A stretch of 64,000 nucleotides of DNA from an uncultured Victivallales bacterium. Lineage in GTDB: Bacteria; Verrucomicrobiota; Kiritimatiellia; UBA8416. Each line of letters begins with the position of its first letter. Position 1 is the stretch's first letter. A program made the translations under genes and the position numbers. The notes under the pieces were generated by a model. It searched no databases. It saw only the letters and a program-made list of their open reading frames with translations, and was not told where the DNA came from. The stretch covers positions 2,888-66,887 of the forward strand of contig CAZCDU010000010.1 of assembly GCA_964497125.1 (NCBI GenBank), written 5' to 3'. This document shows, piece after piece, positions 4,493 to 52,300 of this stretch.

Positions 4493-4933
4493 TCAGACGC
4501 GCAGAACGATACTGCGCTTGGCCACGAGGGCGGCAGAGAGTCGTAGGTCGACTCCTGGAGGCTGGATCATACGAGGTTGCGCATGATCAGGAAGGGAAGA
4601 AACAACGACAGGGCACGTTGCTAACAGATCAGAGACTTGCGTCGCGTTCACAGATTGCTTCTCGAGGATGTATTCAGAAGCGTCCAGAGTAAGCTGGACA
4701 TCAATGCATGTGTCACAGCAATGACAGTTGGTCACACGGACCAACGCTTCAGGTCGTGCGGAGCGTTGTTGCGTACCGTCACGGTCGCCACAGTAACCGT
4801 CATGGGCCACCTCGATAGCGACATGCCCATCGCTGCCAATACACAGCACAACACCAGACAGCCCTGACACCAGAATGGTTACCGCCATCCAGCTCAGAAC
4901 AAGCAGTCTCACTGTTGTCTGTAGTCCCTTCAT
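4493..4933 (-). CDS. hypothetical small secreted Cys-rich protein
   Basis: 146-aa ORF with a signal-peptide-like N-terminus and a 'CHCCDTC' cysteine cluster. No recognisable family, so it may not be a real gene. Confidence 0.3.
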   Translation of the reverse strand: MKGLQTTVRLLVLSWMAVTILVSGLSGVVLCIGSDGHVAIEVAHDGYCGDRDGTQQRSARPEALVRVTNCHCCDTCIDVQLTLDASEYILEKQSVNATQVSDLLATCPVVVSSLPDHAQPRMIQPPGVDLRLSAALVAKRSIVLRV

Positions 4934-5059
4934 CTATACAACGATACCAAGTTATTCTGCTTATAGTCAATACTCCCAACGCGTAGCGTTTTGCGATGCT
5001 ACCATCACGACCCCCAGAACTCAGAGGCCGGCCAACCCCCGGCATCGTACCGCCGCCGG

Positions 5060-5400
5060 ATTATCCACCGGTGAAACTCTCTTCCTTGCTCTCTACTTGC
5101 TCTAGGCATACAGGCGAGACGCCTGTGCCACGGCAGGGGCATCATCGCCCCCAACGCTTCGTCGAGGAGCCAACGTGGCACGGGCGTCCCGCCCGTAAGC
5201 CAAGAGCAAGTTCTGGAGCAAAACAGGTGAGTTCCAGGTCAGCCCCGCCCCCGAGCGCGCTCGGACTAATCAGGGATGAAACTCTCTTCGTAGGCCGGGA
5301 AAGAATTCTCGGCCGTAGGCTGGGGCGGGAGTAGGCGGGAAGAGTTCCCGCCCTACATTCAGAGGTGAAGACCCCAAGAAGACGGGGAAGTTTCAGACCT
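5060..5400. repeat. intergenic repeat cluster A (MITE/REP-like units plus the 138-nt palindromic element)
   Basis: Contains 'GGTGAAACTCTC', 'CTCGGACTAATCAGGGATGAAAC' and 'GGGGAAGTTTCAGACC' motifs shared with 39.1-39.3 kb (inverted) and 47.1-47.7 kb. The GGGCGGGA...TCCCGCCC palindrome is also present. Confidence 0.7.
5088..5225. repeat. 138-nt highly self-complementary element, copy 1 (candidate structured ncRNA or MITE cargo)
   Basis: Outer stem CTTGCTCT(A)GGC / GCCAAGAGCAAG, inner hairpin CAGGCG-AGA-CGCCTG and GTGCCACGG / (CC)GTGGCAC. Nearly identical to 47551-47688 except for the central ~40 nt. Confidence 0.7.
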
Positions 5401-6394
5401 TGATCTCGGCAAATGACTCACGGCTCTGAGGTTCGCAGACAGCTGTCGTGGATGTATCACCCGCAGACAGTTCGACAGTCACGGCAACATCGCCACCACA
5501 GTATGCGGCTATCACCTTGGCCGAGAGGAGGCCATCGCATTCCGCGTCCTTCTGACCACGCAGCAACCCCGATGGCCCGCTAACGCTCACAGGCTCGAGA
5601 CGCACGTCACCGTCGCGCCCCATGCGTTCAAGGTGCTCACACTCCTCCTTGTTGCGACCAAGGACGAGTTTGGCTCCAGAGGGAAGACGGAAATGGCGGC
5701 CGATCTTGAGCAATGCGACATCAGACATCTCAAGCCCACCCGTAAAGTCGATATGCTCGCGAAGTCGCGCAGAGAAATGCTTGTCCGTTAACAGGCAGCC
5801 ACCCGCAGGACAGGGGTAATCGCCAATATGGAGCTTCTCTGCCAGGTCCATCTGGGGCCTGCGGCCACGCCCCTGGATAGCGAGAAGGCTCTCGCGCGGC
5901 ACCCAGCCTTCCTTCTCGGGGATCGTTGGTGGCATATGTTGCGCGCAAAGCGGCCTCACAATCAGACCTTCCAACTCCGTCTCCCGCTCAATGATCTTCA
6001 ACTTGTCACTGAGCTGCGACATCGGCCGCTGCCCGATCACCTCGCCGGTCATGATAAAGGAAGCGCCTTCATCCTCCATCATCTGTTTCGCCTTGCGGAA
6101 CATCATGATGCGACAGTCCAGGCAGGCATTCATGCCGCTGCCACGGCCGTGTTTTGGATCTACTACGATATCCATGTAGGCGGAGCCCAACCCCACGGTT
6201 GAGAATCGGATTCCCAGTTCGTCGGCAATCTTCTGGGCATAGTGGATACAGCCTCCCGAGCCACGATTACACATACAGAAGGGCCCCGTGAAGTGTACAC
6301 CGATGATCTCAATTCCCATGTCGTGGAGCATCCGTACAGCCAAGTTGCTGTCCAGTCCCCCCGACATCAGGGCAATGGCTTTGCGCTGACTCAT
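5393..6394 (-). CDS. PP-loop superfamily ATP pyrophosphatase (ThiI/MnmA-like, probable thiolation enzyme)
   Basis: PP-loop 'ALMSGGLDS' near the N-terminus and a 'TGEVIGQRPMSQ' motif resembling the ThiI 'TGExLGQVASQT' region. Start was set at 'MSQRKAIALMSGG' so that it does not overlap the sulfite reductase stop. Confidence 0.55.
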   Translation of the reverse strand: MSQRKAIALMSGGLDSNLAVRMLHDMGIEIIGVHFTGPFCMCNRGSGGCIHYAQKIADELGIRFSTVGLGSAYMDIVVDPKHGRGSGMNACLDCRIMMFRKAKQMMEDEGASFIMTGEVIGQRPMSQLSDKLKIIERETELEGLIVRPLCAQHMPPTIPEKEGWVPRESLLAIQGRGRRPQMDLAEKLHIGDYPCPAGGCLLTDKHFSARLREHIDFTGGLEMSDVALLKIGRHFRLPSGAKLVLGRNKEECEHLERMGRDGDVRLEPVSVSGPSGLLRGQKDAECDGLLSAKVIAAYCGGDVAVTVELSAGDTSTTAVCEPQSRESFAEIKV

Positions 6395-6434
6395 CTTTTT
6401 CTCCGAACCTTTCCCGTACGCTCTCGGCGCATCC

Positions 6435-8822
6435 CTATTCACTGTTCTTCTTCACAACGATACGCCAATGACCGTCTTCAAGATCCGTCGTCTCGACAAT
6501 CTCCTGCCCCTCCCCTTTCAGGCTCGCCGGTACGTTCTGAACCGGTTCGCCGGCATCCAGCACAATCGCCAGGGAGGACCCCACATCCATGGTCTCAAGC
6601 CTCAGCTTCGCCTTGACGAAATTCATCGGACAAGCAACGCCGCGGAGATCCAGCTCGGGGACGTTGGCCAGCGGCGCCGCTGCCTGCTCGTCATCGACTA
6701 CGGCCTGCCTGCTTGCTTGCGCCGTCTCCGGAGCTTGCAGCATGGGCTGACCGCCGTCGGAATCCTCTGGCGGATGAAACGCCAGGTTGCCATCAAGGGT
6801 CGAGTACAATAGCTCAACGCGTTCGAGCAGGGAGGAAACATAATCCTCATACCCATCAAACGCATCCTGCCACCCTTGTATATAGCCGCGCGCTCGTGTC
6901 AGCAGTGCGCTGAACTCCTCTGCGACAAGCCCCGTATCAACGAACTGCGCCTCGAACTCCCGCAGAACCGAATCCGGATCCTGCACGTCGACGCCGCGTG
7001 TAATCAGCAGTGCCCTGGCGGCAGGCAGAAGTATATCGAAAGGCTCGGTGGCCTTGCGCGCAGCGGCCAAGTCAGCCTGGATAACCTCGAAAACCCCGGA
7101 CCCGCACTCTCCTGCCCCGCGACCGGCCAGCGAGAACTCCTCGTCGGCACCAAAGTCCCGATAGAAGTCAGGCTGCTCATCGTGAGACGGCGTTGCCGCG
7201 TACCCCGCAACGATCTCCCCCAGGTGCGCTTTATCCGTCCGGTCGAAATAGTCGGAAAACGTCTCGTCATTCCGGCGGTTGGCTTCAAAATCCAGAGCAA
7301 ACGCCCGCATCAGATCGGGTAACGCTCGCGCTGGCACCTCGCCCGCCGCGGCGCCAAGTCGCGCACCAGTCACATCGCATCGACCACCAAGCGTAACACG
7401 GTAGGCCGGCACCAGGCGTCCTTCCGATCGCCGTGCAGCGCCAGAGAGACCTATCGGACCAATCGGCTGGTGCCCGCAAGCATTGGGGCATCCATTGATG
7501 TAGACCTCCATCGTGTTGAGCGTATCAGGACTCACGTCACTCGCGTCCAACGCATCGGCACAGGCGCGAGCCGCACCGCGTGCAAGACATAGCCCCAGGC
7601 GACAGGTCGACGCCCCGGCACAAGCCACAAAGCGTTCCAACGCGACCGGCGCGACCACGTCAGTCTCAAGCGTCTGCAGTTCTGCCATCAGCGCCGGAAG
7701 ATCATCAATCTTCACGGAACGGATCACCAGGTTCTGGGAGCGCATCGTGCGTGGGCCTTGCTCCTCGCTGAACTTCGCGGCGATATCACCGATGCGCGCG
7801 AACTCCCCGGCGGGCACAAACCCGAGGGGCAGATGCAACGGAACGGACACGAGCCCATCCTGCCGCTGCCGTACAGCCCATGCATCACCAAACTGTTCCT
7901 TCTGCGGCACGGATGCCGGTGCCGTCTCGGCGGCTTCGTGCAGCATAACATCGCCACACCATTCGGGCACTCCCTCGGCCGTCACGGCGTCCATCAACTC
8001 GGCGAATTGCTGCTTGATGGCCGCCAGCCCGAGGCGCTCGAACACATAACGCAATCGTGCCCGGTTCTTGTTGGTGCGATCTCCATGCTTGTCGAAGAGT
8101 CGTCTGATGGACTCGGCAATGCGAATCACCTGCGTCGCAGGCGTCCACGAGAGCAACTCGTCGCCGACACGGGAGTTGCCGCCCATGCCGCCCCCGGCAA
8201 TCACACGAAAACCGGGCACGCCGTCGCGGACCTCCGCAACGAACCCCAAATCGGACACCTGCGCCAGGGCGCAATCCGCCGCGCAACCACTGAAGGCAAT
8301 CTTGTACTTACGCGGCAGATTGTAGCTCCCAATCAGTGGAATCAGATACTCGGTCACCGCGTGGGCAAATGGCGTGACATCGAAGCTCTCGTGAGGACAG
8401 ATTCCCGCGTAGGGACACGCCGTGATATTCCGCACCGTATTTCCGCCACCGCCCTTGCTGGTAAGTCCAACGGCCATCAGCCGCCGCATAATGGTGGGTG
8501 TGTCTGCAATGGAAATCCCATGCAGCTGAACGTCCTGGCGGGTCGTTACATGCAGCAGGCCGTTGCCGAACTCCGTGCTCAATGCCGCCAGCTCCCGCGC
8601 CTGTTCGTTGGCCAAGGCACCGCCGGCCACGCGGACACGGACCATGTAAGTCCCGTCCTGGCGCTGTTCGTAAACGCCACGAGGCACACGCTTGGCTTTG
8701 AAGACACCAACGGGTATCTCCTCGGCTTCGAAACGTTTAACGTCCTGCGCATAGGTTTCGATGTCGGCGGCAAGATCTTCTGGTAGGTGATAGAAAGGCT
8801 CACTCATCTGTGTGTGCTCCAA
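6435..8822 (-). CDS. siroheme-type sulfite reductase (ferredoxin-nitrite/sulfite reductase family) fused to a C-terminal TusA-like domain
   Basis: 795 aa. Siroheme/4Fe-4S cysteine motifs 'CAGASTCRLGLC' and 'GCPNACG' plus two NiR/SiR ferredoxin-like half-domains. The last ~70 aa, 'LDLRGVACPMNFVKAKLRLE...', match the TusA/SirA CPxP sulfur-carrier motif. Confidence 0.8.
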   Translation of the reverse strand: MEHTQMSEPFYHLPEDLAADIETYAQDVKRFEAEEIPVGVFKAKRVPRGVYEQRQDGTYMVRVRVAGGALANEQARELAALSTEFGNGLLHVTTRQDVQLHGISIADTPTIMRRLMAVGLTSKGGGGNTVRNITACPYAGICPHESFDVTPFAHAVTEYLIPLIGSYNLPRKYKIAFSGCAADCALAQVSDLGFVAEVRDGVPGFRVIAGGGMGGNSRVGDELLSWTPATQVIRIAESIRRLFDKHGDRTNKNRARLRYVFERLGLAAIKQQFAELMDAVTAEGVPEWCGDVMLHEAAETAPASVPQKEQFGDAWAVRQRQDGLVSVPLHLPLGFVPAGEFARIGDIAAKFSEEQGPRTMRSQNLVIRSVKIDDLPALMAELQTLETDVVAPVALERFVACAGASTCRLGLCLARGAARACADALDASDVSPDTLNTMEVYINGCPNACGHQPIGPIGLSGAARRSEGRLVPAYRVTLGGRCDVTGARLGAAAGEVPARALPDLMRAFALDFEANRRNDETFSDYFDRTDKAHLGEIVAGYAATPSHDEQPDFYRDFGADEEFSLAGRGAGECGSGVFEVIQADLAAARKATEPFDILLPAARALLITRGVDVQDPDSVLREFEAQFVDTGLVAEEFSALLTRARGYIQGWQDAFDGYEDYVSSLLERVELLYSTLDGNLAFHPPEDSDGGQPMLQAPETAQASRQAVVDDEQAAAPLANVPELDLRGVACPMNFVKAKLRLETMDVGSSLAIVLDAGEPVQNVPASLKGEGQEIVETTDLEDGHWRIVVKKNSE

Positions 8823-8837
8823 GGGGTCGTCGTCTGT

Positions 8838-9239
8838 TTATACAATCTCAATCTCAACCGGAGTCGGTACTCCGTCAGCAACCGTAAAGCCTTTGATGTC
8901 GGGATTCTCCGGATCAGCCAGCGATACGATCACGTAAACAACATTCGGCGTGTAGGCCATGCGCAAGTCTTCCTCCGACATGCGAGCGGGCGTTACCGGA
9001 TGACTGTGCCAGATCGCCAGCATACGCAGTCCTCTGGAACGCATATCCTTGACGACCGCAAACTGCTCCTCCGGAGCCATGTTGTAGTGCTCGGCGGCCG
9101 CATCGGTATTCACGAGCTCATAGAACTGCTCAACCGCATCGTCCACGCCACCAAGCAGACCACATGCCTCAATCGGCGCTACGGCGCGGGCCGCCGTCAC
9201 CATCGCGTCATACACATCGCGGGGGATCGTCAGTTTCAT
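8838..9239 (-). CDS. JAMM/MPN+ metalloprotease (Mec+/HcyD-like; releases product from the sulfur-carrier protein)
   Basis: 133 aa with the JAMM motif 'HSHPxxxxxxSxxD' ('IWHSHPVTPARMSEED') and an upstream Glu. It overlaps the MoeB-like gene by 4 bp. Confidence 0.8.
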   Translation of the reverse strand: MKLTIPRDVYDAMVTAARAVAPIEACGLLGGVDDAVEQFYELVNTDAAAEHYNMAPEEQFAVVKDMRSRGLRMLAIWHSHPVTPARMSEEDLRMAYTPNVVYVIVSLADPENPDIKGFTVADGVPTPVEIEIV

Positions 9240-10045
9240 CGTCCTGCCAGGTCGCAGACGGCCTGCTCCTCATCCTTCAATTCCGTAATACTGGGATGCT
9301 CCCCGCACAGCGGGCACTTAGCGTTACGCTTCAGCCCCACTTTTCTGAAATTCGTCTTCAGCGCGTTGTAGACCAACAGGCTATCCGTAAGCAGATCGCC
9401 CTTCCCCAGCAGATACTTGACGGCCTCGGTCGCTTGAAGTGTGCCGATAACGCCGGCCAGCACGCCCAACACCCCCGCCTGCGAACAGGAAGGAACCGCG
9501 CCCTTCGGGGGCGGCGCATCAAACACGCAGCGATAGCAAGCGCTCTCGCCCGGAAGCACGCTCATGATCTGCCCGTCGAAGCGGAGAATCCCCGCATGTG
9601 AATACGGCGTGCCAGAGAAATGGCAGGCGTCTGCAACGAGGAATTTCGACGGAAAGTTGTCCGTGCCATCAATGACGAAGTCGTAGTCCGCCAGGATCTC
9701 AAGGGCATTGGCTGCCGTCAGACGGTCATGGTACGTGACCACGTTCACATCCGGGTTGATTGCACGCATCTTCTCCGCAGCCGAATCCACCTTGGGCTGG
9801 CCCAGGTTGGCCGTGAAGTGAATCACCTGCCGCTGCAGGTTCGTCACGTCAACCACGTCGGCATCAATCACGCCGATAGTGCCGATGCCGGCTGCAGCCA
9901 GGTAGAGACCCGCAGGGGATCCCAATCCACCGGCGCCAACCAACAACACCTTGCCCGCAAGCAGCTTCTCCTGGCCCTTGCCGCCGACCTCGGAGAGAAT
10001 GATATGCCGCGAGTACCGTTCAATTTGCGCTTCCGTCAGATTCAC
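9236..10045 (-). CDS. MoeB/ThiF-family E1-like adenylyltransferase (HcyF/MoeZ-like)
   Basis: Rossmann 'VLLVGAGGLGSPAGLYLAAAGIG', the ThiF-family core and a CxxC...CxxC zinc motif ('CYRC...CPLC'). GTG start overlaps the ThiS-like stop. Confidence 0.85.
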   Translation of the reverse strand: MNLTEAQIERYSRHIILSEVGGKGQEKLLAGKVLLVGAGGLGSPAGLYLAAAGIGTIGVIDADVVDVTNLQRQVIHFTANLGQPKVDSAAEKMRAINPDVNVVTYHDRLTAANALEILADYDFVIDGTDNFPSKFLVADACHFSGTPYSHAGILRFDGQIMSVLPGESACYRCVFDAPPPKGAVPSCSQAGVLGVLAGVIGTLQATEAVKYLLGKGDLLTDSLLVYNALKTNFRKVGLKRNAKCPLCGEHPSITELKDEEQAVCDLAGR

Positions 10046-10251
10046 GCTCTGCCACCCCCCATGAAGTAGAGGAACTCCACCTTATCCGCTTCTTTGACCG
10101 TCGTGTCGCCAAAGTCACTGCGACTCAGGATCTCGCCATTCAGTTCAACACTCACCATGTCCGGCTGCTCAACATCGTGCTCAGCCAGCAACGCAGTGAC
10201 CGTGATTTCCCCGCTGATTTCCGCTGCCTCACCATTAATCTGTATCTTCAT
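10042..10251 (-). CDS. ThiS/MoaD-family sulfur-carrier protein with a short C-terminal extension after Gly-Gly (HcyS/CysO-like)
   Basis: 69 aa with a beta-grasp-like sequence ending '...FMGGGRA'. The GG is followed by 2-3 extra residues, as in carrier proteins processed by a JAMM protease. Confidence 0.7.
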   Translation of the reverse strand: MKIQINGEAAEISGEITVTALLAEHDVEQPDMVSVELNGEILSRSDFGDTTVKEADKVEFLYFMGGGRA

Positions 10252-10264
10252 GCTGCTCTCCTTC

Positions 10265-11512
10265 TCATGTCGCCATACGCTTCAGAGCCTGCGTGATGTC
10301 CTCGCGGATATCATCCACATGCTCAATTCCAATTGAAACTCGAACCAAATCGTCTGTGACCCCCATCGCCTCTCTCTCGGCATCGTTAGCCTCGCGACAG
10401 AATGTCGATGCCGGATGAACGATGAGACTCTTGGCATCGCCCAGGTTGGCCAGGTTCTGGGCATGCTTGAGGGCATTGATGAACGTGAAACACCGCTGCT
10501 TTGTGCCCAACCGCAACGTCAGTAGGCCGCCATACATGCCACCAAACTGCCGCGTGGCGACATCGTGGTTCGGATGCGCCTCCAAGCCCGGATAGCCAAC
10601 ATGTTCAACGTTCGAATCCGCATTGAGGTCCTCGGCCACAGCGGCGGCATTGGAACAGTGCCGCTCCATGCGCAACGCCAGCGACTCCATGCCGATCGAC
10701 ATCAGGAACGCATTGAAGGGCGAGAAACAGCAGCCCAGATCACGATGCACGCGATTGCGCAGGCTGGCCACAAAAGCAAACTGCCGCACCCGGTCATAGT
10801 ACTCCTTGAGATGCGTGTATCTTGGGTTATCCCAATCAAAGGTGCCGCAATCCACGATCGTGCCGCCAATAGCATTGCCGTGCCCGTTGATGTACTTCGA
10901 CGTCGAATGGACGACGATATCGGCGCCCAGTTCTTTCGGACGGCACAGCACCGGCGTCGTCACCGTGTTGTCGACCACCAGGACGATCCCGTGCTCTCTG
11001 GCCACCGCCGCAATGGCGCTGATATCCGGCACATCCAGTTTCGGATTGCCGATCGTCTCGACGAAAATCAGTCGCGTCCGGTCCGTGATCGCTTGACGAT
11101 AGGCCTCCACATCGGTCGTTTCGACGAACCGCGTTGTAATGCCATAGCGTGTCAGCGTGTGTGAAAATAGCGAGTACGTGCCACCGAAGATACTGTTGCC
11201 GGAGACAATCTCATCGCCGCTTCCCGCCAGCGCCAACGCCACCGTGCTGATCGCCGCCATGCCCGAGGCACATGCGACCGACGCAAGCCCATCCTCTAAT
11301 GTCGTCATCCGTTTCTCAAAACGGTCAAGTGTGGGGTTGTTAATGCGGCTATAGACAAACCCCGGTGCGCGCCCTGCAAAGACCGCCTCGAGGTCCTCTG
11401 CCGACTCGTAGGCATACGCCGAACTCTGGAAGATCGGTGACACCGTGGCTCCCGTCTTCTCCTCCGGAGCATACGCCCCATGCAGCAGTTTTGTCTCTAA
11501 ATGCACGTACAT
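10265..11512 (-). CDS. metY: O-acetylhomoserine sulfhydrylase (PLP-dependent Cys/Met metabolism enzyme)
   Basis: 415 aa. PLP-lysine region 'VVHSTSKYINGHG' and overall similarity to the MetY/MetZ/CGS family. First gene of the sulfur cluster. Confidence 0.85.
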   Translation of the reverse strand: MYVHLETKLLHGAYAPEEKTGATVSPIFQSSAYAYESAEDLEAVFAGRAPGFVYSRINNPTLDRFEKRMTTLEDGLASVACASGMAAISTVALALAGSGDEIVSGNSIFGGTYSLFSHTLTRYGITTRFVETTDVEAYRQAITDRTRLIFVETIGNPKLDVPDISAIAAVAREHGIVLVVDNTVTTPVLCRPKELGADIVVHSTSKYINGHGNAIGGTIVDCGTFDWDNPRYTHLKEYYDRVRQFAFVASLRNRVHRDLGCCFSPFNAFLMSIGMESLALRMERHCSNAAAVAEDLNADSNVEHVGYPGLEAHPNHDVATRQFGGMYGGLLTLRLGTKQRCFTFINALKHAQNLANLGDAKSLIVHPASTFCREANDAEREAMGVTDDLVRVSIGIEHVDDIREDITQALKRMAT

Positions 11513-12746: not shown

Positions 12747-13718
12747 CTAGCCCCCAATTGCAGCCATGGAGACAGGCTGCTCAAAATGGATGTCCGATCG
12801 CTTGCACTGTAGTGCCGTCCGCACGGTCGCAGCCAGTGAACCACCGTGACGGCCCTGCAACAGCGGGCGAATGTTGTGCCCTTCCCTGCGAGCCAGGCAT
12901 CCCATCAAGCGACCATCGGCCGTTAGCCGCAGCCTTGAGCAATCAGAGCAGAAGCGGTCGCTGCACGGCGAAATGAATCCAACCACGCCTTCGCTGCCAT
13001 CTTGTCCCCTTACGTGGTAACGCTTAGCCGACGCCCCGGGAACACGCGGAAGGGCTGCGAGTTCGAACGCGGTCGCCAACGTCTGACGCACGGCTGTCGT
13101 TGAAACAAACCTCTGCTCGAACAGTGCCGCGCCGTACCCAATCGGCATGAGCTCAAGGAACCTGACCTCGCAGCCGCGGCGCAAAGCAAACCAGAGTACG
13201 TCACACACTTCGTGATCATTGATCCCCCGCATGACCACCATGTTCAACTTGACCGGGCGCAAGTTAGCCCGGAGAGCGGCGTCGATTCCTCCAATGTTGC
13301 TCCCGACACCATCACGCCGAGTAATACGACGGAACGTATCCCGATTAAGCGAGTCGAGGCTGATGTTCACTCGCTGCAAACCCGCAGCGCTCAGGTCATC
13401 CGCCATTGCCCCCAGCAGTTGCGCATTTGTCGTCATACTGAGGTCGGGGACACCGAGTTCCGAAAGCCGTGCGACCAGATCCACGATGCCCTTGCGAGCC
13501 AACGGATCCCCGCCAGTCAAACGAACCTTCTGGATCGCGTATGACGCCCGAAGCTGGTCCACAAAGGTCCGAATTTCATCAAAACTGAGTACATCCTGAT
13601 GTTTGCAGGATGGCACGCCCTCGGCTGGCATACAATAGCGGCAGCGAAGCTGGCAGCGATCCGTCACCGAGATCCGCAACGAGACAGGGGGCCTGCGGAT
13701 GGGTGCGATCATAGTCAT
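12747..13718 (-). CDS. moaA: GTP 3',8-cyclase MoaA (radical SAM, molybdenum cofactor biosynthesis)
   Basis: 'CQLRCRYC' radical-SAM CxxxCxxC motif and a C-terminal second-cluster Cys triad 'CSDRFCSDCSRLRLTADGRLMGC'. Length 323 aa. Confidence 0.9.
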   Translation of the reverse strand: MTMIAPIRRPPVSLRISVTDRCQLRCRYCMPAEGVPSCKHQDVLSFDEIRTFVDQLRASYAIQKVRLTGGDPLARKGIVDLVARLSELGVPDLSMTTNAQLLGAMADDLSAAGLQRVNISLDSLNRDTFRRITRRDGVGSNIGGIDAALRANLRPVKLNMVVMRGINDHEVCDVLWFALRRGCEVRFLELMPIGYGAALFEQRFVSTTAVRQTLATAFELAALPRVPGASAKRYHVRGQDGSEGVVGFISPCSDRFCSDCSRLRLTADGRLMGCLARREGHNIRPLLQGRHGGSLAATVRTALQCKRSDIHFEQPVSMAAIGG

Positions 13719-13937
13719 CTCCTTTCCAATGCGAGACCACGGACCCTGAATGGCGTGTGGTACTCACGGGAGGTGTGATCATTTCCTTTCACACCCTATC
13801 GGCCCGCACCTCGTAGGCCTGACTCAGGCCGTTAGACGCATGGGCTCGGAGGCTTCTCATTGCGACGACTCTTGCCTCTGACAAATATATCTCAGCAGAT
13901 TTCCCGGGGCCGATACAACCTACCCCGGGATGATCAG

Positions 13938-38957: not shown

Positions 38958-39099
38958 CCTGAAGCTTGGCCGTCTTCTTCAGGTCCTTGCTCCCTCGCTC
39001 GCCAGAGCGTGGATGAGCAAGAATGGAGCATGTGAGAGACCAAGAGAGGAGCAGGCGCTCTCCTTTTGGTCTATCTATCCACTCTTCTTGCGCGATCCA

Positions 39100-39330
39100 C
39101 CGTCTGGCGGCGGAGGCTACAAGCGTTTCACCCCTGCTTAATCCGAGTCCACTCGGCCGGGGGCGAAACTAACCTGAAACTTAACCTGTTTCCTAGTGTT
39201 TTAGACTCTTCCGTAGGGCGGGAAATCTTCCCGCCCACTCCCTTCTGTCGAACGTCCAGGAAGGGTTCCCGGCCTACATAAGAGCGTTTCACCCCTGAAT
39301 AGTCCGAGTCCTCTCGGCGGCTTCGTTGAC
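39100..39330. repeat. intergenic repeat cluster C (two direct ~36-nt units, inverted relative to clusters A/B)
   Basis: 'GCGTTTCACCCCTGCTTAATCCGAGTCCACTCGGCC' (39120s) and 'GCGTTTCACCCCTGAATAGTCCGAGTCCTCTCGGCGG' (39280s), 159 bp apart. Also a 'GGGCGGGAAATCTTCCCGCCC' palindrome and 'CTGAAACTTAAC'. Confidence 0.7.
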
Positions 39331-39428
39331 CTCCGACTCCCCTCCCTCCCTTTAGCCTTGCCGAACGTCAACCCCCACCGGTAAAGTGGTTGACGTTTGA
39401 CTTATTGCCGCCGAAGAAAGGGAACCCG

Positions 39429-44361: not shown

Positions 44362-45035
44362 TCCTCTTTGTTACGGCAATTGATACCGGAGTCGGCAAGA
44401 CTTACGCGACAGGGCTTCTCGGACGCTATCTTCGTCAGATAACGCCATCCGTAATCACCATGAAGCTTGCCCAGACCGGGTGCGAAGGACTTTCAGAAGA
44501 CATCATCGAGCATCGACGACTGATGGCGATCGACCTCATGCCCGAAGATCGCGAGGGATCCACATGCCCGTACGTCTTCCCATTCCCGGCATCGCCGCAC
44601 CTGGCCGCACGGGAGGCGGGCACGTCAATCTCGCCGGAACGGCTACAGCGCGCCATTCACGATCTTGCCGAACGCTACGAACACGTCGTGATTGAGGGGG
44701 TCGGCGGTCTGTGCGTGCCGCTGACCGAAACCGTAACCATCCTTGATCTTCTGACCGAGGGCCGTTACCCGACGCTTGTAGTGAGCACACCGAAACTGGG
44801 CAGCATCAACCATACGTTGCTGACACTGGAAGCGCTCCGGTCACGTGATATCCCCATCGCGGGCATCCTCTACAACCGCCACATCAAAGCCCCCGAGCCC
44901 ATCACGAAGGACTCCCGCGTCATCTTCCAGGACTGGCTGAAGCATCACAACACCCCCGACACCATCATCGACCTGCCCCACGTCAGTGCCGACGCCATTC
45001 CCGACGTCAGTTTCGAGGAACTGATGCGTTCTTAG
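44358..45035 (+). CDS. bioD: dethiobiotin synthetase
   Basis: P-loop 'AIDTGVGKTY' near the N-terminus. Start at 'MILFVTAIDTG' overlaps the bioC stop (ATGA). Confidence 0.8.
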   Translation: MILFVTAIDTGVGKTYATGLLGRYLRQITPSVITMKLAQTGCEGLSEDIIEHRRLMAIDLMPEDREGSTCPYVFPFPASPHLAAREAGTSISPERLQRAIHDLAERYEHVVIEGVGGLCVPLTETVTILDLLTEGRYPTLVVSTPKLGSINHTLLTLEALRSRDIPIAGILYNRHIKAPEPITKDSRVIFQDWLKHHNTPDTIIDLPHVSADAIPDVSFEELMRS

Positions 45036-47032
45036 GGTTGTTGGTTGCCTGCGGTTGCGTGGCATGCACTCACCGCCTCCATCACCGTGCCAAACCGCAT
45101 ATGCGAGAATCGCCCGAACCGGGGATCGCGGGTCAGTTTCGCCCGCGAGGCAGATGGGGATGGCAGCCCGCAGAGAAAGCGTGTCAGTTGTCGTGGTGAT
45201 GCCAGGGCAGCATGGTCTTCACTCAACAGATCGTCAATAACCGCGAGGCCGGTCGTGGTAATCGACGCATCCCGCATGGGCGGCATCGGGAAACGCGCCT
45301 CACCCATACAGCGGTCACAGTGGCCGCAGTCCCCCTCCAGAGACTCTCCGAAATAGCCAAGCACCTCTCGCACGGTACAGGACTCCAGTTCGGCCAGGGC
45401 CACGACCTGACGGATACGCTCAAGGTCTCGCGCTTCAGATGTCTGGAAACGGGCATGGATCGCGTGGGCGAGCTTGCCGGCAGCGGACGGCCGCTGCACG
45501 AAGCGATACCCATGCCGCAGCCCGGCGACTTTCAGCGTCAGATCGCCCTGCTCCTCGAGGTGATTCAAGGCAGACACAAGGTCTACGCGCGGCGCCCCCA
45601 GCGCGGCCGCTGCGGCGCCGATGTCAACCGTGAACCAGATCCTGCCCTTTCTGGCCCTCCTGAACATCGCGCGGAGCAGCTGCACCCGCTCGGCATCAAG
45701 CCCTGCCAGCATCTCTGCCGAGCTGCGGTTGGGCTGGAACTTGTACTCATTGTAGAGCGGCCCCGTGGAGGCGATGATCCCCTCCAGCTCCAGATATGTT
45801 AGCAGCGTCGAAATCACCAGCGTGCGCATATCATACGCCGTAGACAGCTCGTAGACCGAAACATCAAAATGGTCCGGCTGGTCGAGAATATGCCCGATCA
45901 CTCCCGCCACGGCCGCAGCCGTCGGGGTATCGCCATAGGAGAAGTTCTCCAACGTGGCAACATCGTCAGGACAAACCAGGAGGTCACAGAAGGCGGTCTC
46001 CCCATCACGCCCCGCACGCCCCGTTTCCTGCATGTAATTCTCCAGCGACTTGGGCATGTTGTAGTGATAGACGTAACGAATGTCCGCCTTGTCAATTCCC
46101 ATGCCAAAGGCAATCGTCGCGACCACGACGGCTTTTGGGGACGCCATAAACCAATCCTGTACCGCATGACGCACATCACCATCCATACCGGCATGATACG
46201 CCCTGGCCTCAACGCCGTTGGTTTCGAGAAATGCGGCCACCTGTTCTGCGGTCTTCTGCAGCGTCACATACACAATTGTCGCCCCGCGCGGCCGCGACTT
46301 CAGATGCGAAAGCAGCAGCTTGTCGCGCGCCGGCGCCGCGCACGGCACGGCCCGCATCGTCAGGTTTGGGCGATGAAACCCCGTATTGATGTAGGCCTCA
46401 GGCGAGATCGAAAAACTGCGGCAAATATCCGCTGCCACAGACGGCGTCGCGGTTGCCGTCAACGCCAGGACCCGGGACACCTTCAGATCGCGAGACAGCG
46501 CAGCAAGCTTCAGGTAATCCGGTCGGAAGTTGTGCCCCCACTCGGAGATGCAATGCGCCTCGTCAATCACCATCAGGCTGATGGATGAGCGGCGCAACCG
46601 TTGCACGAAACGTTCACTTGCAAACCGTTCGGGCGCGACATAGAGGATCTTCAGATTCCCATTCCAGAGGTCATCCCAGACTTGGCGCGATTCCTCGGCT
46701 GACAGGCTCGAATCAAGACGCGCCGCACGCACGCCCTTGCTCACCAGGAAATCGATCTGGTCCTTCATCAACGCAATCAACGGCGATACTACCAGCGTCA
46801 TCCCCTCCAACATCAGCGCCGGAAGCTGGAAGCAGAGACTCTTGCCACCGCCCGTTGGAAACACGGCCAGGGCCGAGTTCCCGGCCAATAGCTGCTCAAC
46901 GATCTCCCGCTGGCCCCCACGAAAGGAGTCAAACCCAAACACATCCATCAAAACGCGATCAACATCCATATCGTCACCTGCCTTCTGCCTCTCCATCCCG
47001 CCCACTATACCTGAAGGACACCTTTCCTCCAC
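45032..47032 (-). CDS. recQ: RecQ-family ATP-dependent DNA helicase
   Basis: 'FGFDSFRGGQ', Walker A 'PTGGGKSLCFQLPAL', 'DEAH' box, RecQ-C zinc motif 'CGHCDRC' and a C-terminal HRDC-like region. The true start is probably an internal Met (M13 or M22). Confidence 0.85.
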   Translation of the reverse strand: MEERCPSGIVGGMERQKAGDDMDVDRVLMDVFGFDSFRGGQREIVEQLLAGNSALAVFPTGGGKSLCFQLPALMLEGMTLVVSPLIALMKDQIDFLVSKGVRAARLDSSLSAEESRQVWDDLWNGNLKILYVAPERFASERFVQRLRRSSISLMVIDEAHCISEWGHNFRPDYLKLAALSRDLKVSRVLALTATATPSVAADICRSFSISPEAYINTGFHRPNLTMRAVPCAAPARDKLLLSHLKSRPRGATIVYVTLQKTAEQVAAFLETNGVEARAYHAGMDGDVRHAVQDWFMASPKAVVVATIAFGMGIDKADIRYVYHYNMPKSLENYMQETGRAGRDGETAFCDLLVCPDDVATLENFSYGDTPTAAAVAGVIGHILDQPDHFDVSVYELSTAYDMRTLVISTLLTYLELEGIIASTGPLYNEYKFQPNRSSAEMLAGLDAERVQLLRAMFRRARKGRIWFTVDIGAAAAALGAPRVDLVSALNHLEEQGDLTLKVAGLRHGYRFVQRPSAAGKLAHAIHARFQTSEARDLERIRQVVALAELESCTVREVLGYFGESLEGDCGHCDRCMGEARFPMPPMRDASITTTGLAVIDDLLSEDHAALASPRQLTRFLCGLPSPSASRAKLTRDPRFGRFSHMRFGTVMEAVSACHATAGNQQP

Positions 47033-47099
47033 ACTATAGAAGAGGCAGATCCGGAAAATTCCGAAGAAAGTTGAGACTTTCTTTTCTCATCCCGTCGTT

Positions 47100-47733
47100 T
47101 TTACCACGTGACAGGCAGGCGGGCGGGCTGCCGAGCGGGCCCGGATTAATCAGGAGTGAAACATGCAGTCGCTATGTACGGCCTAAAGGCCGAACTACAA
47201 ACGGGTTGCTACATGAATCCGGCGTTTGTAGTCCGGGCTTTAGCCCGTAAACCGGCGGTGAAGTTTCAGACTAGTGCAGCCGCCGAGTGGACTCGGACCA
47301 TTCAAAGTTGAAACTTGAGAATTAACACTGAGGACCTCAAGAGCGGCGGGAAGGACTCGGAGACTCGCCCGTTCCCGCCCTACAATTGGGCCCTGCATTA
47401 CAGGGGGCGTAGTCTTATGTGGCCTCCCGCCGTCTCCCGATGCAACGCGCGGCTCTTGGTTAACGGGTCGTTCGAATTGAAGTTTCAGGTCAGTTTCGCC
47501 CCCGGCGTCGTACCTCCTCCGGAATAATCAGGGTGGAAACTTCACTTATTGCTCTCTACTTGCTCTTGGCATACAGGCGAGACGCCTGTGCCACGGCATG
47601 CGCATAGTAGCGAGCAATGCTTCGGCGAGAGGCCAAAGTGGCACGGGCGTCCCCGCCCGTAAGCCAAGAGCAAGTTCTGGAGCAAAACGATGAAGTTTCA
47701 GATCAGCCCGCGTGACACTCGCCTATTCAGGGA
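47100..47733. repeat. intergenic repeat cluster B (three tandem MITE/REP-like units, the last carrying the 138-nt palindromic element)
   Basis: Units end in '...TAATCAGGAGTGAAAC', '...AAAGTTGAAAC' and '...TAATCAGGGTGGAAACTTCAC'. The partner inverted motif 'GTGAAGTTTCAGAC' recurs at about 47259, 47479 and 47692, with spacing of about 215 bp. Confidence 0.7.
47551..47688. repeat. 138-nt highly self-complementary element, copy 2
   Basis: Flanks are nearly identical to 5088-5225, while the central ~40 nt are only about 60% identical. The same stems are preserved. Confidence 0.7.
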
Positions 47734-49326
47734 CTAGCGTCCCCCGGTGCCCGAGCCTTGCTGCTTCGGGGCAACGACGGCAGTGGTCAGAGGGAAATCA
47801 TCCGTGCGGAAAGGCGTCACGGGGAGGCCCGTCCGGTTCTGGAGGTTGCAGACGGGATTCTGTGCCCATGCGTAACGCACGGCAATGGGATCGGCAACGG
47901 TATCACACCAAACCTGCACCTTGTCGCGTCCCTGGAGCTGCGCTTTCGCATTGTGCCAGACCTTGTCTTCACCGCAAATGGCAAAGCCCAGGGGTTCCCG
48001 CACATCGAACGTATCCAACCCCGGCCCCACGTGATCAAACGCCACCACGATCTTGTTGCCCTGCTTCTCCATGGAGCGGTACTCGGGGCTGCGACAGACG
48101 ATATCCAAGCCGTAGTCTTTCGCGAGCGCCAGGCGAGCCAGGCGTTTGGCTACGCCTTGCTTATTCCTGGGATGAATGTCATGGGCCTCGCCAAGGTCGG
48201 TAATCACGGCCTGTCCCGTGTTGGGAAGACTCAGCGTCAGCGTCTGTGACTCGCGCAACTCCGCCCAATTGCTGTCCGTAGGCTGATCGACCTCATCCTG
48301 GAAATCAGCCAGCTGGACCCAGTAGAACGGGAAGTCGCCCTGCCCCCACTGTTCACGCCAATGCGTGATCATCAGGGGGAAGAGCTTGCGGTAATTCCAC
48401 GCCCGGCCGGCATTGCTCTCGCCCTGGTACCAGATGGTCCCACGGATGCCGTAGCCGATGATGGGATGAAGGACACCGGCATAGAGATTGCCCGGACGAT
48501 GCTGTCCCCGCATGTCATGCTCGGGGTGACGCGGCTTGCGTGGGCCCCTCTTGCCCGCAGCCTTGGCTGCGGCGGTTTCCTGTTGCCATTTCGCAAGGTT
48601 GGCATCGTACAGCTTCTGCGACTTTCCGGATTCCATGTCGGCTTCCTTCTGCTCCCACATCTCAATGTAGGTGTCACAGTCGCCAGAGGCCTCAAGAACA
48701 TCGCGTCTGACCCATGCTTCGGCCGAGGAACCACCCCATGCGTTATTAATCAAGCCAATCGGCACATCAAGCGTCTGATGCAGCTGCCGACCAAAGAAGT
48801 AACCAACGGCTGAAAAGTGCTTCACCGTTTCAGGCGTACAGAGATTCCACTGCCCCCTGAAATCATTCTGCGGCTCCTGAGTCCCCACCTGGGGAACACT
48901 AATGAAACGGATCTTGGAATACTTAGCGGTCAAGCTCTCAAGGTCAGGATCGTCGGAGTTCTGTAGCGACCACTGCATGTTCGACTGTCCCGAGCAAAGC
49001 CACACTTCACCAACAAGGACATTATCGAAGCGCTGGGTTGTGGAGCCGGTTACGACAAGCGCTCTCCCCTCGGCAGACGTCTTGAGCGCATCAAGCACGA
49101 CCTCCCAACGGCCATCGTCTGCCGCCACGGCCGACTTCGTCTGCCCCGCGAATTCCACGGTCACGCTCTTGCCGGCATCATCCCATCCCCAGACCTTCAC
49201 AGGCATATCGCGCTGCAACACCATGCGGCTGCCGAATATGGCCGGCATCTTGGTTTCAGCCGATGCGGTCAAACCACCCAGAACGATGAAACCAACAAGA
49301 ATGGCAAGCGTGAGACGATCTTTCAT
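47734..49326 (-). CDS. sialate O-acetylesterase-like carbohydrate esterase (SASA/DUF303 family)
   Basis: Signal peptide starting at 'MKDRLTLAILVGFIVLGG'. 'GEVWLCSGQSNM' GDS(L)-like serine motif and two SASA-like domains. Confidence 0.65.
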   Translation of the reverse strand: MKDRLTLAILVGFIVLGGLTASAETKMPAIFGSRMVLQRDMPVKVWGWDDAGKSVTVEFAGQTKSAVAADDGRWEVVLDALKTSAEGRALVVTGSTTQRFDNVLVGEVWLCSGQSNMQWSLQNSDDPDLESLTAKYSKIRFISVPQVGTQEPQNDFRGQWNLCTPETVKHFSAVGYFFGRQLHQTLDVPIGLINNAWGGSSAEAWVRRDVLEASGDCDTYIEMWEQKEADMESGKSQKLYDANLAKWQQETAAAKAAGKRGPRKPRHPEHDMRGQHRPGNLYAGVLHPIIGYGIRGTIWYQGESNAGRAWNYRKLFPLMITHWREQWGQGDFPFYWVQLADFQDEVDQPTDSNWAELRESQTLTLSLPNTGQAVITDLGEAHDIHPRNKQGVAKRLARLALAKDYGLDIVCRSPEYRSMEKQGNKIVVAFDHVGPGLDTFDVREPLGFAICGEDKVWHNAKAQLQGRDKVQVWCDTVADPIAVRYAWAQNPVCNLQNRTGLPVTPFRTDDFPLTTAVVAPKQQGSGTGGR

Positions 49327-49396
49327 AACGTGTCCTTCTACTGATGGAGTTAGCAAGAGGAGGAGTCTAGTGTAGTGAGGATAGCGTCGGCAACCG

Positions 49397-52300
49397 CTAA
49401 TCGTCATCAATGCTGAGGCGATAGAAAACACTCTTCGCATCACATATGCCGGTCGTATAGACATTGACTGGCGGCGTGGCCGGGATCGCCGAGTTGGTGA
49501 GCGTGAACTCACCTGAGACCAGGTTCGTGCTGATCCACAGCGAGTAGAACTTGCCGGTCGCGCTCAACCACGAGAACACACAGCCTGAAGTCTGCCCTAC
49601 ATCGGTCAGCGCAAAGACGGATTCCGCATCAGTCGGATCGGTGCCGGCGCGCCACTCGTCATAGTTCGTCGCCCCGTCCTCATCCCAATCCTCATCCGCC
49701 CCACCGTCCACGGCATTGGTGTTCCCAAAATAGTCGATCTCCCAACTATCCGGCATCCCGTCGCCATCGTGGTCGTCGAGCACCTGTTCTGCTGAGCCCG
49801 GCGATGGGCTTGCATCCGCAACCCAGTTGGTAGCGTCGTTCGGGTAGGCGGCCACATCGACACGTGCCAGCGATGATCCAAGTCCATCAGCCGCCAGCGG
49901 CCAGGGCGCGGCATCGTTGTAGTCGACGAGCTCGACGACAATATAGGGAACTTCTCCCGTCAGTGCCTCCGGTTCACCCGGCCGGGTCAGCGTCAGATCC
50001 TCGCCATCATTGTTGAGCGCGCCCTCGTATGGACCGAGTACTGTGACACCTGCATCCACCGTGTAGTAGCTGCGGAACGCCGCCTCATTCGTTTCAGTAA
50101 CTAACAGGCATTCACCGGCGGAAAGCACAATGCCGGTCGGGAAGCTGAACGTCACCGCACCTTCAAGCTTCCAGGTGTTGGTGGGATTAGCCAAGTCGTA
50201 GAGCGGGGCATTCGAAGCGCTACGGTTGCAGATCTCGACGAACTCAAAGCCATTGCTGTCAGCCGGATGATAGACGAACTCGGTAATGACCACCGAATCG
50301 ACCAGCGGATAGGCGTTGCTTGCGCCCGAGGTCTGCGAGCTCTGCGCCGTGAAGTCGGCCGTACCATCGCTCTTGATGTGTCGCCCAAACGTCACATCGC
50401 GCTCAGCCGCGCCGAAAACCGCCTCAACCCGGTAACCGGTCAGTTCCCCACCCTCGCTTGAAGAGAGGTAGACGCCCTCACCCAGCTCACTGAGAGCAAA
50501 GCCGTTCACCCCTGCCGCGGCGGCGCCGAAATGATCATGCTCGGTCAAGACCTGGTACCCGCCGGGGGCAATGGCTGCAATTCCACTGAGCACAACCTTT
50601 GTCAGGTTGGTATCGTCGTCACTCAGGTACCACCCATTGATGTCAATCGTGTTGGTAGAGTTGTTGAACAGCTCAATCCAATCACCTGGATCATCCTGAT
50701 CCTGGTGCGTCAGCACTTCATTGATGACTAGATCATCAGGATCAAGGAACGCGAACGGCCCGCTACCGGGGGTGCCGCCAACATACTTACTTGGACGCCA
50801 CGCTGTGCTTTCGTTCCAGGCATTGGTGTCGGCAGCGGGATCAATCAACGTCAGCGAATACCCATCACCATCCGTGATCGCGTACCAATCGTCATATTCA
50901 AAATCAAGGATCGTGCGGCCGAGACCATCAATCAACGCAACCTGCTCCCCGGAATTGGCAAGGGCCGCATCTTGAATGTAGAACTGTCCATAATACTCAC
51001 CTGCGATGTTGATGTTTGCCCAATTGGTGTAGCGTGCGGCGAAGGCATCCAGATCGTTCACAAGCACAACGTACTCACCGGGATCAAGCGTCGTCACATC
51101 ACCATCCGTGAAGTCGAAACGGACACCCTCGCTGAATGCGGTTCCGGCCAGGCCGACCGTGCCCGTGCCGGTGTTGAGCAGTTCAATAAACTCAAACCCC
51201 GATGCTGCATAGTTCGTCTCCGCTCCCGACACCGGGTCAATCGGATGATACATGACCTCGGTGACGCGCAGGGGCGAGACCTCGCTCAGCACGAAGATGG
51301 CCTCTGTCAACGCGCTCCACGTTCCGCCGCTCAGAACACGGGCCTTCACCTGCGTCGATCGCGTCAGCGTGACGGCATTGCTATAGGCCGCACCCGCGAC
51401 ACTACCGCCAACCGCGCGGGGATCAGAACCGTCGGTCGTATAGTAGATCTGGCTGTCGCCGCTGATGACAAGCGCGTATCCAGACGTGAGGCTGCCACCG
51501 TGCTGGCTGAATGACGGGGCATCCACGGCGGGGTACCACCCCACGCTCTCAAGCTGGCCAACGACCACATCTCTGCGGGTGTTGGGTGATGCCTGCAGGT
51601 AGTCGTCGAGAATGCTATTGACCGCGGGCAGCCAGTCGTCGTCCCTGGTTCGCGGCGTCGCTGTGATGTAGTCCCCCCACCGGGCGGACTCGGCGATGAT
51701 CGCCAGCTCCATCTCTGTCTTGCGATCGTTCAGAAGTGCTACCGCGTTGTCGGGAGTCAGGACGCCATCATTGAAAAGATGGCGGTGAACGCGGTCGGCA
51801 AAACGCAGCTTGTACTCATCGTTGTCGACGAGTTGGAGATGCAGCCACCACGGGTTAAAGCACTCCATGGTACCCAGCGTCGAGCTGGCAGCGACCGTTG
51901 CCGAACGCGTGCTGACGATATCGTAGTCAACCTCCTCTGTTAAGTGATAGCCGAGGGCATGTTCCGCATCGTGTGCGATGAACTTGAACCCCTCCGGGCT
52001 CACCCGGTTGTACAGCGCGAACAAGTTGTTCGGTATCGATCCGGTGTTCGGCGGCCCCAGTGGCGAATCGCGATTGCCCACGTAGAACACCGTCAGCATG
52101 TAATCAGCCAGGTTATCCACATCCAACAACTGCGTGTAGCTCTCGTTCCTTGACCCATCGGCATTCATGCCCTGGATAAAGAAGTAGTCGACGTTGGCAA
52201 CGACCCCGGAATTGGCGGCCGACCACAGCGACTGGTAGTCATCGATTACGCCGTCAGTTGCCTCTATCTGCCCCCTGTTATCACCGGCCTTCACAATATC

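Follow-up and report, generated by a model that had tools for sequence, protein, structure and literature searches.

A dispersed 138-nt palindromic element of an uncultured Victivallales bacterium is built from paired REP units

Introduction

Two copies of a highly self-complementary 138-nt element lie between genes in a 64,000-nt stretch of DNA from an uncultured Victivallales bacterium (contig CAZCDU010000010.1; the whole stretch is referred to below as the window), and they raise the question of what kind of object keeps its stems while its center diverges. An interpretation made from the letters alone (hereafter the sequence-only reading) had left a choice between a structured RNA and a hairpin-forming mobile element. 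REP-type repeats (repetitive extragenic palindromes) have been known for forty years. The mobile-element half of that proposal is favored by our analysis because the arms of the element are built of a described REP unit, because this unit is repeated in many genomes, and because the element itself is dispersed; the structured-RNA half gained no specific support. The 138-nt element is one composite REP doublet of a known class, from an uncultured bacterium of the Planctomycetes–Verrucomicrobia–Chlamydiae (PVC) type, and does not represent a new RNA family. We consider it likely that it is a non-coding, non-autonomous palindromic repeat of the kind formed by REPs, bacterial interspersed mosaic elements (BIMEs) and REP doublets forming hairpins (REPINs), a REPIN-like non-autonomous repeat being the most likely description.

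Results

Both copies were found at the positions that the sequence-only reading had assigned to them, and alignment of the two 138-mers with MAFFT bore out the distinction between conserved arms and a diverged center. Between the copies, the left 48 columns were 97.9% identical (47/48) and the right 49 columns 95.9% identical (47/49, one 1-nt indel included), in agreement with the value of about 97% that had been claimed for the outer arms. The center had indeed diverged, but less than the estimate of about 60% identity had implied, with 29 of the 42 central columns (69%) being identical. The element and its parts are as follows.

5088-5225, unstranded: copy 1 of the 138-nt palindromic element (REP tail-to-tail doublet plus outer arms); the outermost stem may begin at 5085.
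5110-5131, minus strand: left REP unit of copy 1, reading GTGGCACAGGCGTCTCGCCTGT (GTGG tag, 7-bp stem, TCT loop).
5132-5174, unstranded: variable spacer of copy 1, 43 nt between the inward GTGG tags, with two small hairpins.
5175-5196, plus strand: right REP unit of copy 1, GTGGCACGGGCGTCCCGCCCGT.
47551-47688, unstranded: copy 2 of the 138-nt palindromic element.
47573-47594, minus strand: left REP unit of copy 2, identical to the left unit of copy 1.
47595-47637, unstranded: variable spacer of copy 2, 43 nt.
47638-47660, plus strand: right REP unit of copy 2, GTGGCACGGGCGTCCCCGCCCGT, with a loop longer by one C.

Each arm holds one 22-nt REP unit of the form GTGG + CACnGGCG-TCY-CGCCnGT, in which a GTGG tag is followed by a G+C-rich stem of 7-8 bp and a TCY loop. 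The left arm reads GTGG-CACAGGCG-TCT-CGCCTGT on the minus strand and the right arm GTGG-CACGGGCG-TCC(C)-CGCCCGT on the plus strand; the two units stand in opposite orientation, GTGG tags toward each other and 43 nt apart, and constitute a tail-to-tail (TT) heterodimer in the nomenclature of Di Nocera et al. 2013. Outside the REP units there are 22-28 nt of further complementarity (ACTTGCTCT.GGCATA / TAAGCCAAGAGCAAGT, plus GCTC / GAGC). The stems noticed in the sequence-only reading were largely recovered, namely the outer stem ACTTGCTCT.GGC / GCCAAGAGCAAGT, the hairpin CAGGCG-AGA-CGCCTG and, in copy 1 only, the hairpin GGGGC-ATCATC-GCCCC. The GTGCCAC / GTGGCAC pairing that it had proposed also exists, but the right arm of this pairing is ACGTGGCAC in copy 1 and AAGTGGCAC in copy 2, not CCGTGGCAC, and a fourth hairpin in the right arm, CGGGCG-TCC(C)-CGCCCG, had been overlooked.

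Compared with the left unit of copy 1, the right unit carries a compensated A-T to G-C stem pair together with the TCC loop. With this change, the small hairpins stay perfect and A:C and U:G positions arise in the long hairpin that the whole element can form. Since the change is compensated locally and yet mismatches the long hairpin, what is conserved would seem to be the small hairpins. The window contains four REP core units, all of them short stem-loops with a terminal GT(A/G)G tag, as is usual for REPs of the GTAG-tagged superfamily (20-40 bp).

The REP unit corresponds to one that has already been described. In Di Nocera, De Gregorio & Rocco 2013 (PMC3733652), a superfamily of GTAG-tagged REPs is reported from Proteobacteria, Cyanobacteria, Chloroflexi and the PVC superphylum, GTGG is accepted as a variant of the GTAG tag in Opitutus terrae, and Additional file 3 lists the peptides GTGVPPV, GTGVSPV, WHGRPAR, WHGRLAR, VARASRP, HGRDARAT and TGGTPVP for intragenic O. 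terrae GTAG-19 elements. Translation of GTGGCACGGGCGTCCCGCCCGT in three frames yielded VARASRP, WHGRPAR and GTGVPPV, all of which are recorded for O. terrae GTAG-19, and translation of its complement yielded HGRDARAT and TGGTPVP, which are on the same list. The GTAG-19 peptides represent the forward and reverse frames of GTGGCACGGGCGTC(C/T)CGCCCGTG, i.e., the right-arm unit, and GTGVSPV corresponds to the left-arm unit. A family match made via translated peptides is indirect, but it fixes nearly every base; the family number is uncertain and the correspondence of the sequence to a described O. terrae REP family is certain. As for the numbering, the main text of the same source assigns the GTGG tag to 'GTAG-20' and its supplement assigns the GTGGCAC-type peptides to 'GTAG-19', and the numbers may have been shifted. 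A search of the literature for the core sequence returned only unrelated primers, and RepRanger 2025 does not mention it.

According to Di Nocera 2013 (PMC3733652), the spacers of TT dimers tend to vary and some hold small stem-loops; there are heterodimers whose two stems are unlike, REP clusters take flanking DNA along, and most REPs lie downstream of open reading frames (ORFs), where the neighboring ORFs run in one direction or converge. All of these features of spacer, heterodimer, stem-loop, flanking DNA and placement fit the 138-nt element. Besides matching a described family, the unit is repeated many times over the genomes covered, falls into sub-families with complementary stem changes, and is mostly extragenic and downstream of ORFs.

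The REP core is widespread. The core 21-mer CAGGCGAGACGCCTGTGCCAC was found at more than 120 loci in other GTDB genomes among the matches listed, and its true spread is larger; by our own estimate, less than one match to a 21-mer would be expected by chance in 596 Gb. Record names among these matches represent seven phyla (Planctomycetota, Verrucomicrobiota, Desulfobacterota, Cyanobacteria, Chloroflexi, Armatimonadota and Acidobacteriota), and the identical 21-mer occurs in both metagenome-assembled genomes (MAGs) and isolates, including the cultured cyanobacteria Dulcicalothrix, Calothrix, Tychonema and Microcoleus. Within 170 nt of the core matches listed, 41 GTGGCAC sites were found (the seed's own tag left out), and a hairpin follows the tag at 34 of them. 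The loop of these neighboring units is TCC or TCT in 33/34, and their stems vary by complementary changes (CGGGCG, CCGGCG, CCGCCG, CAGGCC and others), with 32 compensated cells at four stem positions among the 34 units of the matches listed.

The core occurs as singletons and as inverted doublets, in both orientations, with up to 5 units within 8 kb in some genomes among the matches listed. Inverted doublets among the loci listed have their tags outside in 30 cases and inside in 5, and three of the latter five are the 138-nt element itself (the two window copies and the third copy, L121, described below). In other genomes, a stop-free stretch of at least 600 nt spans REP sites less often than random sites (59% vs 87%, a crude test), and the ORFs lying between nearby doublets elsewhere are, judging from their translations, ordinary genes (ClpS-like, amidase and aminodeoxychorismate synthase-like). 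No REP-core locus among the matches listed has the outer arms that flank the units in the 138-nt element. The identity of the core across seven named phyla is at odds with strictly vertical inheritance of REPs and their REP-associated tyrosine transposases (RAYTs).

In the window, the 138-nt element is embedded in mosaic arrays in which palindromic modules alternate with linker repeats of 60-70 nt, which we call A units. The arrays and their components are listed below.

4934-5392, unstranded: mosaic array 1, consisting of an A unit, the 138-nt element, an A unit, GTAG-tagged hairpins (5290-5356) and an A-unit remnant.
5017-5084, plus strand: A unit abutting copy 1, long-loop subtype, ending in GGTGAAACTCTCTTC (the left bracket of the sequence-only reading).
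5226-5289, plus strand: A unit flanking copy 1 at its opposite end, starting with GGTGAGTTCCAGGTCAG (the right bracket of that reading) and ending in CAGGGATGAAACTCTCTTC.
47033-47733, unstranded: mosaic array 2, with three long hairpins set between four A units.
47478-47545, plus strand: A unit abutting copy 2, long-loop subtype.
47689-47733, plus strand: truncated A unit separating copy 2 from the upstream sialate-esterase-like gene, whose stop codon is at 47734-47736.
About 47255-47320, about 47105-47165, 39120-39190 (minus strand) and 39280-39340 (minus strand): further A units.
38958-39389, unstranded: mosaic array 3, of the same family, without the 138-nt element and inverted along with its flanking genes.
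L140:19228-19368: fourth array, just beyond the window, between convergent genes.
47177-47249, 5290-5356, 47338-47458, 38986-39123 and L140:19228-19368: other palindromic modules in the arrays.

Read in the plus orientation, the A units of arrays 1 and 2 consist of GTTTCAGGTCAG, an internal hairpin and then ATCAGGGnTGAAAC. The ends, GTTTCAG and TGAAAC, are conserved and the stem and loop of the internal hairpin vary; one such unit is found at each long hairpin, and the long-loop subtype stands next to the 138-nt element in every copy. The GAAAC / GTTTC motifs that had been described as bracketing the element are real, being the ends of these neighboring linker repeats. The three hairpins of array 2 are the 138-nt element, the module at 47338-47458 and a GTAG-tagged TT doublet at 47177-47249, the two units of which again differ by a compensated stem pair; hairpins of several other kinds occur in the arrays, GTAGGGCGGGAA...TTCCCGCCCTAC units among them. 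With REPs alternating with defined linkers in the three window arrays and in L140, the architecture is a BIME-type mosaic.

Arrays 1 and 2 begin at the stop codon of the gene upstream. In array 1, the A-unit remnant overlaps the stop codon 5393-5395, which is contained in the GTTTCA at 5390-5395, and at 47728-47736, in array 2, an A unit runs up to the stop codon (47734-47736). The three window arrays and the array in L121 all have the same orientation with respect to the genes around them. No A unit was found in the 120 REP loci of other taxa among the matches listed, A units had no Rfam match, and RNAalifold gave no consensus structure for ten linker units, owing to indels. Two other identities for the linkers and arrays were considered and rejected. 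A hammerhead ribozyme (CUGAUUA ... CGAAAC) was dismissed as its core is not conserved (CUGAUUA / CUGCUUA / CUGAAUA; GAAAC to GGGGC) and Rfam is silent; a CRISPR array, an integron attC site or a group II intron was dismissed on anatomy, since the would-be 'repeats' measure 60-70 nt and differ from one another, the would-be 'spacers' are repeated palindromes, and an R''/R' core is missing.

Dispersal of the element is apparent from its contexts. Copy 1 lies between minus-strand genes of the ThiI/NFACT-R type (5393-6442) and for a 146-aa ORF (4493-4933), and copy 2 between a sialate-esterase-like gene (47734-49512) and a RecQ-like helicase gene (45032-47032), also on the minus strand; both copies are thus intergenic, as had been proposed, and each stands between co-directional genes. 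The two gene contexts are unrelated and 42 kb apart. A coding function was rejected because the ORF 4996-5334 spans copy 1 only and a 1-nt indel separates the copies. Similarity between the copies runs past the 138 nt, from 5036-5245 in one to 47499-47709 in the other (blastn, 84.6% over 214 nt, E ~2e-54), and the doublet travels jointly with one adjoining linker repeat of ~65 nt, giving a duplicated unit of ~210-230 nt.

A scan of metagenomes with the outer arm retrieved a third copy (L121), which matches both window copies at 87-88% identity over 207-230 nt and has flanking genes that differ from those of either. The search for more copies suggested in the sequence-only reading thus succeeded, and the result it had named as damaging to its view, that no further copies would exist, was not obtained. 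As a dispersed repeat, the 138-nt element occupies no fewer than three genomic contexts and breaks metagenome assemblies. No copy beyond the two was found in the window plus its flanks of ~19 kb, and viral contigs and plasmid and phage records contained none. Every recovered copy is a complete doublet sharing the arms and the adjacent linker (three versions and one inferred).

DNA of the same organism, 100% identical, is present in many independent assemblies from JGI (samples 3300009314, -320 and -329 among them) and ENA (SUTE22-1), in which contig after contig breaks off at the arrays. Three end at the boundary of copy 2 (L127, L128 and L130), two inside copy 2 (L133 and L135), two further into array 2 (L131 and L132), and one at window position 4883, beside array 1 (L143). 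Two other contigs share the esterase gene and copy 2 and then change locus: L129 (7175-7765) contains copy 2 exactly, then four A-unit mismatches and then an unrelated locus, and L134 (2228-3031) switches to another locus further along, likewise after a few linker mismatches. These are either rearrangements or assembly cross-overs via additional copies, and in either case point to more copies in the genome. Also in favor of a REP-type repeat, sampled contigs of relatives at 88%, 81% and 75% protein identity have none of the motifs, although gene order differs in them as well.

We weighed a structured non-coding RNA as an alternative, meaning a family of small RNA genes or a cis element (in a 3' untranslated region or between cistrons) whose fold would be the selected function and whose repetition would be secondary. 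Each copy is predicted to fold into one long hairpin of extreme stability, with energies on the plus strand of -87.7 (copy 1) and -83.1 kcal/mol (copy 2; z = -10.3 and -8.7) and on the minus strand of -86.6 and -82.7 kcal/mol (z = -9.0 and -8.5), the z-scores being derived from 200 dinucleotide shuffles, none of which matched the native energy. The z values of about -9 to -10 favor a selected fold, but the plus and minus strands fold equally well. On the three versions of the sequence, RNAalifold identified three pairs changed on both sides on the plus strand, several one-sided changes kept via G:U, and a covariation term of -0.99 (versus +1.34 on the minus strand, where two pairs are compensated); three sequences are too small a sample to weigh one-sided G:U changes. 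Two of the three compensated plus-strand pairs fall in the flanking linker motif and the third in the center, the 50-odd pairs of the long main stems are invariant over the three versions and give no covariation signal, and the strand with the better covariation runs antisense to the genes on either side.

The shared orientation of the three window arrays and L121 relative to their flanking genes likewise speaks for an RNA, and REPs are generally thought to act as RNA once transcribed (Di Nocera 2013, PMC3733652). Against this stand the REP nature of the core, which is found in both orientations and, elsewhere, in coding regions, and the lack of expression signals: no promoter-like or terminator-like site was found at either copy. 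The one promoter-like site in region 1 (4970-4941, minus strand) belongs to the downstream gene, and no intrinsic terminator was found in either region, the hairpin being followed by AAAAC on the plus strand and GGAAGAG on the minus strand. The statement of the sequence-only reading that the element resembles no known non-coding RNA family held up in the Infernal/Rfam check it had proposed. Rfam 15, searched with the three arrays at gathering and permissive thresholds, yielded nothing relevant and no family match even at E up to 10; the best local scores were 18-21 bits against thresholds of 41-99 (microRNA and small RNA models), and the sole match in the window, a Moco riboswitch, lies elsewhere. 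No tRNA or tmRNA was found. In light of these results, we regard a structured RNA as unlikely.

A classical miniature inverted-repeat transposable element (MITE), that is, a deletion derivative of an insertion sequence (IS) with the 48-nt arms as terminal inverted repeats for a DDE transposase, would account for the long, near-perfect inverted arms around a variable center, for the dispersed copies and for a size near that of known bacterial MITEs. The arms are, however, built from a REP unit that elsewhere stands by itself, and no target-site duplication is present: the GTTTCAG... repeats on either side begin separate linker units, which are found at places without the element too. Nor did we find a match in plasmid or phage records, a transposase-like neighbor or a parent IS, and we consider this origin very unlikely. 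A one-off local or segmental duplication with neither mobility nor function, which would agree with the presence of only two copies in 64 kb and none in the ~19-kb flanks, is extremely unlikely and already largely refuted by the third copy, given that the window copies are 42 kb apart, confined to ~210 nt and set in unrelated gene contexts, that another metagenome provides a third context, and that assemblies break and cross over at the repeats.

Discussion

One of the closest known systems is the O. terrae family listed as GTAG-19, which has in common with the 138-nt element the peptides noted above, a tag of the GT(A/G)G type, a TCY loop of 3 nt on a short G+C stem, sub-families related by compensatory changes, inverted dimers and an origin in the PVC superphylum. 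The two differ in that the units here are 43 nt apart, compared with 1-2 bp in the TT dimers reported for O. terrae GTAG-19 in PMC3733652, and in that the units here are surrounded by 22-28 nt of extra outer complementarity and by lineage-specific linker units. The hosts differ as well: ours is uncultured, and its nearest named homologues are from Lentisphaerae, Planctomycetaceae and Verrucomicrobiales MAGs.

Other REP-based repeats offer partial parallels. Like REPINs (Bertels & Rainey 2011, PMC3116915; PMC3337134), the element has REP parts that are better conserved than its spacer and is dispersed and intergenic; unlike them, its REP core occurs in seven named phyla, whereas REPINs come from Pseudomonas and enterobacteria and are described as vertically inherited. 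In REPIN systems a cognate RAYT gene typically lies among its own REPs, and it is the doublet, rather than a lone REP, that replicates and builds up a population of tens to hundreds. The alternation of REP hairpins with short linker motifs, and the placement between same-direction genes near the 3' end of the upstream gene, recall the BIMEs of Escherichia coli (Ton-Hoang 2012, PMC3333891), but the REP and linker sequences are unrelated and the linkers here are much longer (60-70 nt), hairpin-containing repeats. Clusters of the BIME kind are also known for being bound by IHF, DNA gyrase or Pol I. In the REP-derived long inverted repeats of Pseudomonas, a degenerate GTAG-1 unit is combined with an unrelated stem-loop (Di Nocera 2013, PMC3733652); as in our element, an arm consists of a REP unit fused to an unrelated palindrome and is repeated in the genome. 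The sequences differ, and some of the Pseudomonas repeats flank a tyrosine transposase gene, none of which was seen here.

A possible mode of propagation can be drawn from published work on REPs, RAYTs and REPINs (PMC3116915, PMC3337134, PMC3333891 and PMC3733652). By analogy with those systems, the REP hairpins would form in single-stranded DNA and be recognized there by a RAYT, a Y1 HUH transposase with a single-copy gene at another place in the genome; this enzyme would cut next to the GT(A/G)G tag and copy the doublet to new intergenic sites, leaving the spacer between the inward-facing tags free to vary. When transcribed in the 3' region of the upstream gene, the hairpin probably impedes 3' exonucleases or read-through and may in this way stabilize or delimit the mRNA.

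Several observations weigh against a mobile REP-type repeat. Transposition and any role at the RNA level are deduced from such parallels and were not observed. The full 138-nt element was recovered in only three versions, probably four, which falls short of a population of tens to hundreds, and nothing comparable to the outer arms or the linker units has been described. Comparison with relatives at 88%, 81% and 75% identity yielded no clean pair of filled and empty orthologous sites, since synteny does not extend to them and the neighboring genes differ at both loci. A tblastn search with E. coli RayT of the window plus ~0.8 Mb of REP loci gave a best E of 0.39 and no RAYT gene, a weak test for a protein that is single-copy and fast-evolving.

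A more far-reaching view has two parts. The arrays could constitute a modular system acting at the RNA level, derived from domesticated REP units, that would punctuate or insulate transcripts; this idea arises because lineage-specific linkers alternate with REP hairpins, because arrays start exactly at stop codons, and because three of the four arrays examined share an orientation relative to their flanking genes. Separately, the core could mark a REP/RAYT system that travels horizontally, which, if true, would contradict the view of strictly vertical inheritance. We think this view unlikely.

As one more REP doublet in a long-known class, the 138-nt element carries little weight as a discovery. 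Two side observations, the lineage-specific linker units and the identical REP core in genomes named for seven phyla, are mildly interesting, and the broad spread of the GTGGCAC core provides a lead for the study of REP/RAYT transfer between lineages. In practical terms, the hairpins should not be annotated as RNA genes, and the arrays account for the fragmentation, and the occasional mis-joining, of this organism's metagenome assemblies at these points.

Other features of the window

Two further features were noted in the window. Upstream of copy 1, a sulfur-relay cluster (6435-11320) encodes ThiS, ThiF, a JAB peptidase, a sulfite-reductase-TusA fusion and a ThiI/NFACT-R protein; the cluster is conserved and is syntenic in L124, a relative at 80% DNA identity. 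The Moco (molybdenum/tungsten cofactor) riboswitch RF01055 at 13703-13863 on the minus strand scored 50.1 bits against a gathering score of 36 and sits upstream of the ORF at 12747-13718 on the same strand.

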